DNA from: an uncultured Methanosarcinales archaeon
GTDB taxonomy: Archaea; Nanobdellota; Nanobdellia; Woesearchaeales; CAYMBN01
Direction: 5' to 3'
Assembly (NCBI GenBank): GCA_964388715.1
Contig: CAYMBN010000001.1
Location: 76,962 to 140,961 of the forward strand
Length of the DNA stretch: 64,000 bases
In this document: piece after piece, positions 7,615 to 9,131 of the stretch
How positions within the stretch are numbered: the first letter of the stretch is position 1
How the letters are laid out: each line of letters begins with the position of its first letter
Position numbers and translations under genes: made by a program
The notes under the pieces: generated by a model
The model's input: the letters and a program-made list of their open reading frames with translations, nothing else
Told to the model about the DNA's origin: nothing
Database searches by the model: none

Positions 7615-7622
7615 TTTATAAA
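7615..7622 (+). promoter_or_regulatory. TATA box of tRNA-Tyr
   Basis: TTTATAAA preceded by an A-rich BRE-like stretch, about 25 nt upstream of the tRNA 5' end. Confidence 0.7.
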
Positions 7623-7646: not shown

Positions 7647-7807
7647 CCCTACCTAGCTCAATGGCTAGAGCGTTCGGCTGTACTGTTTCATACGGGGTCA
7701 AAGATGCGCTTTAGGACCTTATGCACAAAGCAAGGGATGATAAAGAGCCAGCCAACACCGAAAGAGAAATCCGGTAGAGGTTCCTGGTTCGAGTCCGGGG
7801 GTGGGGA
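7647..7807 (+). tRNA. tRNA-Tyr(GTA) with an anticodon-loop insertion (7683-7756) and a 15-nt intron at 43/44 (7763-7777)
   Basis: Acceptor CCCTACC/GGTGGGG with C1-G72 and A73 (archaeal Tyr identity); D arm GCTC/GAGC; anticodon stem TTCGG/CCGAA; T arm CCTGG-TTCGAGT-CCGGG. Confidence 0.9.
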
Positions 7808-8542
7808 TTAAGGAGTAGGGAAATTTTTTCCTACTTCTTTTATTATTCTTTTTCTTTGAGAATAAGTTGTGTTTGGTGGACAATATCCTAATTTTTGCCA
7901 AACTTTTATTTTTGTTATATGTTTAGGGTTTGAAAAACCTATTTGATTTAACCATTTTTTTAAGTTTCTTTTACCATTAATTTCCAGACGGTATAGAGTA
8001 AAAATACCAAAATTATTACTCTTTTTAACTTTTTGTTTATAATAAGTAATACTTACTCTATCAAGTATTTTTTGAATATCCTTAATTATTCTTTCTGAGG
8101 AAAACTCAGCTACAATTCGAGGATATGAGTGTGTTTTTCTATCTCCTTTTTTAAAACTCATACTGAAATCAGTATCTGCAAGCCCTTTAAGAAATCTTAA
8201 TGATAATAATTGATTATTAATTATATTACTTGGTATAAATGCCTTGTCTGATTTCTTACCAACTATCACACCAATATTTTCAAAGAATTCCAATAGTTTT
8301 TTAGAATGAGTGTATAATCTTGCATATTCTTCTTCGTGTTTTAGAGTAAGATTGTGATTAAAACATTTATAAAATAACGAAGTAATATACTTGAAATAAT
8401 CAACTTCTTCTATTTTATCCCCAACAATTTCAATTCTATAACTGGTTCTTTTAGATGATATATACCTACTTAAATGACCATCTCCAGTAATTATCCCACA
8501 AATTTCAGCGACTTCTGGTGTTATATTTAAATTCTTAAACAT
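7808..8542 (-). CDS. Free-standing double-motif LAGLIDADG homing-endonuclease-family protein
   Basis: Motif 1 AEICGIITGDGHL, motif 2 FLKGLADTDFS, GKKS, IGFSNPKH; no intein termini or flanking exteins. Confidence 0.88.
   Translation of the reverse strand: MFKNLNITPEVAEICGIITGDGHLSRYISSKRTSYRIEIVGDKIEEVDYFKYITSLFYKCFNHNLTLKHEEEYARLYTHSKKLLEFFENIGVIVGKKSDKAFIPSNIINNQLLSLRFLKGLADTDFSMSFKKGDRKTHSYPRIVAEFSSERIIKDIQKILDRVSITYYKQKVKKSNNFGIFTLYRLEINGKRNLKKWLNQIGFSNPKHITKIKVWQKLGYCPPNTTYSQRKRIIKEVGKNFPTP
7811..7844 (+). terminator. Hairpin plus T-tract downstream of tRNA-Tyr, embedded in the 3' end of the LAGLIDADG gene
   Basis: AGGAGTAGGGAA pairs with TTTCCTACTTCT, followed by a T-rich run. Confidence 0.5.
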
Positions 8543-9011: not shown

Positions 9012-9131
9012 GGGCCGGTAGCTCAGCCTGGTGTGGTTTGCTTTGCGCAAACTGTGGGCAACTAGAGCACATGACTTTTATGTTAACGCAAGGTTATCAT
9101 GGGGTCGAGGGTTCGAATCCCTTCCGGCCCG
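9012..9131 (+). tRNA. tRNA-Lys(TTT) with introns at 19/20 (9032-9061) and 37/38 (9081-9095)
   Basis: GGGCCGG/CCGGCCC with G73; CATGA-CT-TTT-A..TCATG; both introns fold into BHB motifs (GCCT/GGGC and CTTT/AAGG central helices). Confidence 0.95.

Follow-up and report, generated by a model that had tools for sequence, protein, structure and literature searches.

How can a tRNA gene whose anticodon loop is interrupted by 75 nucleotides (nt), and which carries another 15-nt insertion after position 43, give rise to a standard tRNA? The question is raised by a tRNA-Tyr(GUA) gene at 7647–7807 of a 64,000-nt stretch of DNA (the window; contig CAYMBN010000001.1, positions 76,962–140,961, assembly GCA_964388715.1) from an uncultured archaeon placed by GTDB in the Woesearchaeales. 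An earlier reading of the window, made from its letters without database searches (the sequence-only reading), pointed out that excision of the anticodon-loop insertion as a single intron leaves C at position 37. This is correct for both registers, since a 73-nt or a 74-nt intron leaves CT-GTA-CA. We consider it likely (about 0.8) that the gene instead contains three bulge-helix-bulge (BHB) introns, here termed A, B and C, with an exon of only two nucleotides, A7702–G7703, between A and B, and that the product has the loop CU-GUA-GA. The proposed parts are as follows.

7647–7807, + strand: whole tRNA-Tyr(GUA) gene, positions 1–73, no encoded CCA (ARAGORN with introns)
7647–7681, + strand: exon 1, tRNA positions 1–35, ending at U35, the second anticodon base (cloverleaf parse)
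7682–7701, + strand: intron A, 20 nt, at 35/36 (strict hBHBh' motif and 10/10 orthologues)
7702–7703, + strand: micro-exon AG, giving A36 (third anticodon base) and G37 (orthologue comparison)
7704–7756, + strand: intron B, 53 nt, at the canonical 37/38 site (homology to the single intron of relatives)
7757–7762, + strand: exon 3, positions 38–43, A38 plus the anticodon-stem 3' strand CCGAA (cloverleaf parse)
7763–7777, + strand: intron C, 15 nt, at 43/44 (BHB geometry)
7778–7807, + strand: exon 4, positions 44–73, variable loop AGGTT, T arm, acceptor 3' strand and discriminator A (cloverleaf parse)

The genome (1.30 Mb in 31 contigs, 30.8% G+C, 95.75% complete) hides this gene well. Neither default ARAGORN nor Rfam at its gathering threshold gave a match anywhere in the window. 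With its intron option ARAGORN reported a tRNA-Tyr(GTA) with one 73-nt intron and C37, and took the second insertion for a long variable arm. The cloverleaf is nonetheless complete: an acceptor stem (7647–7653/7800–7806) with C1-G72 and discriminator A7807, a D arm (7656–7671), an anticodon stem of TTCGG (7673–7677) with CCGAA (7758–7762), and a T arm (7783–7799). A GUA anticodon, C1-G72 and A73 are identity elements of archaeal tRNA-Tyr, and the gene has all of them within its cloverleaf. For C1, this role is stated in passages of PMC3491384.

When 7647–7681, 7702–7703, 7757–7762 and 7778–7807 were joined in silico, the 73-nt product was called tRNA-Tyr(GTA) by ARAGORN, with a 7-nt loop CT-GTA-GA, so removal of intron A is compatible with a standard tRNA. 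It is identical at 71 of 73 positions to the spliced single-intron gene of a relative (G022), differing only at T-loop positions 57 and 59.

The segment 7560–7900 was matched with 0 differences by DNA contigs of two marine-sample studies, and because the contigs of both studies agree, the interruptions are no assembly artefact. In other metagenome contigs from the same samples the match to the 5' exon ended at 7682, beyond which a different intron sequence followed; relatives present in these samples therefore differ in the intron at this site.

Intron A and the micro-exon in relatives

Two BLAST searches supplied the relatives, one with the gene as query in 61 related genomes and one with its anticodon arm in a sample of 401 genomes of the same order. 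The total came to 33 distinct, delimitable tRNA-Tyr genes, one of them contributed by a pattern search. The 5' half of the gene showed 88–100% identity in relatives. Two forms of the gene were found. The first, in 22/22 other relatives, has an uninterrupted CTGTAG followed either by one 37/38 intron homologous to intron B or by none; a further gene, L021, is the 23rd with CTGTAG intact. The second has an extra insertion directly after CTGT and occurs in ten genes, those of G000 (this genome), G001, G009, G027, G049, G061, G133, G143, G171 and G344. These represent ten different families of one order, with families assigned by the labels of the tool. A degenerate pattern search for the double-intron form was of little use: it returned 15 places in 14 of the 401 genomes, six of the 15 were not tRNA genes, and a reversed-pattern control matched about equally often. 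One of these six lies in the unpublished genome G315, on which no result given here depends.

What places the first intron at 35/36 is the base that follows U35 in the ten double-intron genes. It is A in two (G000 and G344), T in three and G in five. In eight of the ten, therefore, A36 must come from downstream, from an AG dinucleotide. Such a dinucleotide is available at a constant place: AGAT is invariant in 10/10 of these genes, 17–36 nt downstream of U35.

The proposed intron A is bounded by a strict hBHBh' motif, in which two 3-nt bulges surround a 4-bp (base-pair) helix with flanking helices on both sides. The central helix pairs GGCT (7676–7679) with GGTC (7696–7699) at 4/4 positions, between bulges GT|A and AA|A. 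The inner hairpin has 4 bp (7683–7686/7692–7695). The outer helix has 2 bp, C7675-G7703 (C29-G37) and T7674-A7704 (U28-A), which are invariant in orthologues. Shifting intron A to the 36/37 register gives the same sequence in this genome, owing to A7682, but leaves no central helix.

The same geometry recurs in all ten double-intron genes, where G30–U33 pair at 4/4 positions with the bases 2–5 nt before the 3' cut, between bulges GU|N and A(A/U)|A. Around this core the intron is variable: it is 17–36 nt long, and its inner hairpin has 2–9 bp and a different sequence in every genome. In the alignment 69 of 69 cells were standard pairs, compared to 18.8–52.2% when the partners were slid by 1–3 columns, and none of 500 shuffles reached the observed pairing or covariation score. 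Pair 31:b-3 occurs as G-C (five genes), G-U (four) and A-U (G049), and the first pair of the hairpin as A-U (five), C-G (three) and U-A (one). As judged from sequence, the structure is conserved across at least ten families of the order.

Intron C (7763–7777), at the 43/44 site where the sequence-only reading had also placed an intron, has a central helix of four Watson-Crick pairs, ACCG (7757–7760, A38–G41) with CGGT (7772–7775). Its bulges are AA|A and AG|A, and its 2-bp inner helix GA/TC is closed by GAAA. An intron of the same geometry is present in five of the ten double-intron genes.

Other pairings near intron A were noted. A second strict BHB candidate, 7695–7725, was at chance level and would remove the micro-exon. 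G30–U33 can also form four Watson-Crick pairs with 7750–7753, flanked by GT|A and AA|C, in a BHB-like half motif (7676–7681/7750–7756). Cutting there would excise 7682–7755, micro-exon included, and leave a 6-nt loop, so the half motif may pose a hazard of mis-splicing. Introns A and B have similar 3' ends (RGYCAA|A and AGCCAAY|A, respectively), a hint that A may have originated by local duplication.

Two of the relatives, G027 (gene L003) and G038 (gene L020), carry one more BHB intron, of 22 nt, in the D-loop, with central helix GCTC/GAGC. The G038 gene is otherwise a single-intron gene. That of G027 has four introns, compared with the maximum of three quoted in the portions of the literature compared.

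Intron B and a probable order of splicing

Intron B and the single intron of relatives are homologous, as evidenced by shared motifs, a GA...hairpin...(G/A)AUGA module and a 12-nt spacing from that module to the 3' end. Two elements stand out within it.

7706–7748, + strand: kink-turn-like module (sequence pattern)
7749–7753, + strand: CAGCC, complementary to G30–G34 (7676–7680), forming a conserved alternative helix (sequence comparison)

The module agrees with the sequence pattern of a kink-turn (L7Ae-binding) motif. It comprises a non-canonical stem (7706–7713/7741–7748), a 3-nt bulge (7736–7738), tandem G.A pairs (G7715.A7740 and A7716.G7739) and an apical hairpin (7717–7724/7730–7735) that contains G7734. 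A strict form of the kink-turn rule was matched by 16 of 34 sequences, among them eight of the ten double-intron genes and several single-intron relatives; it was also matched by 116 of 680 shuffles and is only moderately specific. CAGCC directly follows the 8-bp stem of the module. As CAGCY it is kept in relatives across the order, and in G049 the helix is preserved by a compensating GACTG/CAGTC.

We considered other roles and registers for this intron. It does not qualify as a box C/D guide, an RNA with terminal C and D boxes whose guide sequence base-pairs to the target five nucleotides upstream of D: a 5' C box is lacking, and the 3' element is CCAA, and in relatives it is variously CUGA (only some of them), CCGU or CUGU. 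Nor does it qualify as an H/ACA RNA, since the ACA at 7755–7757 is not conserved in relatives. Alternative registers (36/37, 38/39 or the cuts implied by the competing helix) produce loops of 6 or 8 nt or a variable base at position 37.

Several observations tell against the three-intron structure. In this sequence taken singly, the intron A motif did not exceed chance (2 strict candidates versus a mean of 3.3 in 500 shuffles). With single-sequence motifs at chance level, the question was therefore put to a comparison with relatives, and these are kin rather than independent witnesses. The intron A boundary is ambiguous by sequence in this genome and in G344, where A follows U35; an A at the start of intron B together with A38 likewise makes 37/38 and 38/39 equivalent by sequence. 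The 2-nt size of the micro-exon thus derives from BHB geometry and homology, not from sequence alone. The motif of intron C is a relaxed HBh', since its outer helix amounts to 1 bp only. After removal of intron A, the BHB of intron B would have an inner helix of 2 bp and an outer helix of 5 bp, with only two of four central pairs (G34-C7752 and U35.G7751). The central helix of the canonical intron in the 22 relatives has 3/4 or 4/4 pairs, with U33 the mismatched base in the 3/4 cases, and the other canonical introns of this genome have three or four of four central pairs in eight of ten genes examined. Folding is no kinder to intron B: after removal of A and C the competing helix had a pair probability of 0.89 and the anticodon stem 0.01–0.02, and the enforced canonical structure was ∼4 kcal/mol worse than the enforced competing-helix structure. 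Nearest-neighbour folding is unreliable for tRNAs, and here it did not recover the mature cloverleaf.

The splicing enzymes count on both sides. In favor of the structure, the genome has two RtcB genes and one EndA gene, of 177 amino acids with both Pfam domains. Against it, the EndA protein aligns end to end, with no insertions, with the strict homotetrameric enzyme of M. jannaschii, and the insertion of six residues seen in the N. equitans catalytic subunit is absent from it. A tblastn search for a second EndA subunit gave weak matches only, the best of which (C3) is an unrelated 493-amino-acid acidic protein. Broad specificity in DPANN archaea has been linked to an extra loop of the enzyme (PMC5829648, in passages on this point). 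We found nothing in EndA to explain cleavage of the relaxed motifs B and C. At the level of sequence, the comparison establishes where exons and introns meet, as well as the intron A BHB and the intron C central helix; from these we infer splicing itself, its order and the mature sequence.

The alternative that survives best keeps the same exons and changes how intron B is recognized: through the competing helix (30–34/CAGCC) and the kink-turn, perhaps bound by L7Ae, acting as substrate or as timing device. We regard this as possible, though we would not favor it. Both the competing helix and the kink-turn module are conserved, the helix across the order, and it is the helix that prevails in the predicted ensemble. 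In three single-intron genes (L011, L014 and L027) CAGCT is kept and 6–9 extra bases downstream provide a separate, better canonical strand with 4/4 pairs; two roles that a single stretch seems to serve in the remaining genes are thus kept apart in these three. As a splice motif, however, the competing helix would direct cuts that put the variable last base of the intron (C, T, A or G) at position 37. The literature compared, as far as its available portions go, offers no precedent for cleavage at such a motif. Nor does the intron read as a box C/D guide, there being neither a D box nor a 5' C box here.

For the three-intron structure with a canonical motif at intron B, folding of the primary transcript suggests an order of events. 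Pair probabilities were 0.94–0.99 for the central helix of intron C; for intron A they were 0.83–0.90 in the hairpin, 0.66–0.72 in the outer helix and 0.34–0.36 in the central helix. The anticodon stem was at 0.00 in the same ensemble. Its two strands would accordingly start out apart, positions 28–33 engaged in the intron A motif and 38–41 in the intron C motif. Since these motifs do not overlap and the strands would be held apart, A and C could be cut first. Ligation of U35 to A36 would then place C32–U35 beside the A36–G37 bulge, and the canonical motif of intron B could form atop the restored anticodon stem, its outer helix, with B removed last. Because the intron B motif needs U35 adjoining A36, intron A is probably out first. 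The sequence-only reading had likewise judged ordered splicing likely.

Such an order would keep the AG dinucleotide on a large RNA at every step and never release it as a free piece. A dinucleotide set loose would be hard to ligate. Since a two-base exon cannot survive free, the gene works only with ordered intron removal. It shows how far archaeal cut-and-ligate splicing can stretch, and as a natural substrate it would allow a clean test of ordered splicing by the two enzymes, EndA and RtcB.

A bolder proposal, which we put forward only tentatively, is that AG may be the shortest exon yet described in any BHB-spliced RNA. It would split the anticodon between its second and third bases, be kept in at least ten families, and make ordered recursive splicing obligatory, with the kink-turn and the helix opposing the anticodon stem forming a device, assisted by protein, that keeps hold of the micro-exon and postpones the last cut until after the first ligation.

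Other readings of the insertion

Could the gene be decaying or silent, with tyrosine decoded by an undetected tRNA that is split, permuted or encoded on unassembled DNA? An assembly in 31 contigs at 95.75% completeness leaves some room for this, as does the finding of only 14 tRNA matches above the Rfam cut-off genome-wide, which indicates that standard tools overlook many tRNA genes. We nonetheless hold it to be very improbable. Ten families retain the structure, with pairs restored by compensating changes, and the exons agree with those of a relative with one intron at 71 of 73 positions. When the gene was searched against its own genome by BLAST, it found itself and one weak intron match, with no second match to either gene half and no second tRNA-Tyr. 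ARAGORN made two other 'Tyr' calls in the genome, which we consider spurious in view of their 430- and 468-nt 'introns' and poor arms. An upstream TATA-like box tells against decay too; it is given below together with a hairpin downstream of the gene.

7615–7622, + strand: TATA-like box TTTATAAA, 25–32 nt upstream of tRNA position 1 (read from sequence)
7815–7834, + strand: hairpin GTAGG/CCTAC around a T6 run (7824–7829), followed by more T-rich sequence (read from sequence)

We take TTTATAAA at 7615–7622 as a putative archaeal promoter element; the hairpin and T-run at 7815–7834 are a possible transcript end. The gene at 7647–7807 is apparently functional, and apparently the only tRNA-Tyr(GUA) gene of the genome.

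The sequence-only reading had itself proposed three introns, but with the first two at 7683–7733 (36/37) and 7735–7756 (37/38) around a 1-nt exon, G7734. The pairings it listed for 7683–7733 do exist (3/4 in the central helix and 3 bp of TGT/ACA), and its cuts yield the same 73-nt product as ours, with loop CU-GUA-GA and G37. The agreement arises because the base at 7682 happens to be A in this genome, so that both models predict the same mature RNA. The motif itself is at chance level: its outer helix has 0 bp, its helices have a pair probability of 0.00 in the ensemble, and 220 site pairs in the 161-nt gene score equally well or better, compared with a mean of 210 in 200 shuffles. The second of its introns has no inner helix. 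G7734 pairs with C7718 in a hairpin stem that relatives preserve through compensating changes (for example CCTA/TAGG in G049 and CTTT/AAAG in G143). Cutting at 36/37 would leave eight of the ten orthologues with G or T as base 36, and so with a GUG or GUU anticodon on a tRNA-Tyr body. The conserved hairpin and these wrong anticodons rule out a G7734 exon, and we give this version of the boundaries hardly any credence.

Much of that proposal survives apart from the boundaries. The number of introns stands, as do the 37/38 and 43/44 sites and the arrangement of two back-to-back introns around a micro-exon that supplies G37. The first site is at 35/36 rather than 36/37, the boundaries of the first two introns move, and the exon has two nucleotides, at 7702–7703, rather than one. 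Comparison with the tRNA-Tyr genes of relatives, which had been suggested as a check, bore out G37 (22/22) and the extra intron (ten genes), but not the boundaries as proposed.

Removal of one composite 73–74-nt intron from a tRNA that functions with C37 is scarcely believable: ARAGORN models the gene in this way and the anticodon stem would serve as a 5-bp outer helix, but the central helix has at most 2/4 pairs and there is no inner helix in either register (7683/7756 or 7682/7755), the GUA anticodon would be destroyed in eight of ten orthologues, and G37 is found in 22/22 relatives.

Known systems and further hidden tRNA genes

Multi-intron tRNA genes with up to three introns are described for the Thermoproteales, Pyrobaculum calidifontis for example, in passages of PMC8450103, PMC4090602 and PMC4033280. 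The first of these also notes that archaeal tRNA introns can lie so close together that one leaves before the BHB of the second can form. The gene described here shares with those, as they are portrayed in these passages, the presence of several BHB introns at canonical and noncanonical positions, their close spacing, and their escape from standard finders. It differs in belonging to a DPANN-type genome with a single EndA resembling the homotetrameric type, and in that its close introns are 2 nt apart, the first splitting the anticodon at 35/36.

The nearest parallel for exon size is ARMAN-2, where one T-loop holds introns at both 53/54 and 59/60, with a 6-nt exon left between them (PMC3239211, in the relevant passages). 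There too, as far as that account goes, a DPANN archaeon has two BHB introns (strict ones in ARMAN-2) in a single 7-nt loop, with a very short exon between them. Unlike here, the ARMAN-2 exon is in the T-loop and has 6 nt rather than 2 nt in the anticodon loop, and by the same partial account the enzyme is a three-unit epsilon2 type with a specificity loop.

Intron B invites comparison with the intron-borne box C/D RNAs of archaeal pre-tRNA-Trp and N. equitans pre-tRNA-Met, mentioned in passages of PMC4090602 and PMC3491384. In common with these, so far as those passages describe them, it has a kink-turn-forming GAUGA/GA module beside sequence complementary to its own anticodon region. In contrast to them, it has one kink-turn, no terminal C box and no D box (CCAA, with CUGA in some relatives). 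A tRNA-Tyr case of an intron-borne C/D RNA is not described in the portions of the literature compared.

Multi-intron tRNAs with ordered splicing are thus already known, and the 2-nt, anticodon-splitting exon is an extreme variant of them. We found no 2-nt exon or 35/36 intron in the portions of the literature on archaeal tRNA introns that were compared, in which position strings are unsearchable and which do not extend to the primary Thermoproteales papers; priority for the 2-nt exon cannot be claimed. For annotation the gene carries a warning, in that standard finders miss it or give an impossible C37, and in relatives would give a wrong anticodon.

A second hidden tRNA gene was noted in the window at 9012–9131. 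ARAGORN with introns calls it Asn, and it scores 19.6 bits with Rfam, below the cut-off. By eye it looks like a tRNA-Lys(UUU) with a ∼30-nt D-loop insertion and a 15-nt intron at 37/38. Brute-force splicing combined with ARAGORN was uninformative for this locus, as hundreds of variants were accepted.

Across the genome, ARAGORN with introns reported 23 tRNAs, several of them spurious, compared to the 14 above the Rfam cut-off, and a strict scan for T arm and acceptor gave 18 candidates. Introns were present in most of the detectable tRNA genes. Many tRNA genes of this genome must be hidden by multiple or noncanonical introns; given only 14 confident matches, it is probably genes of this sort that account for the tRNAs 'missing' from DPANN genomes.

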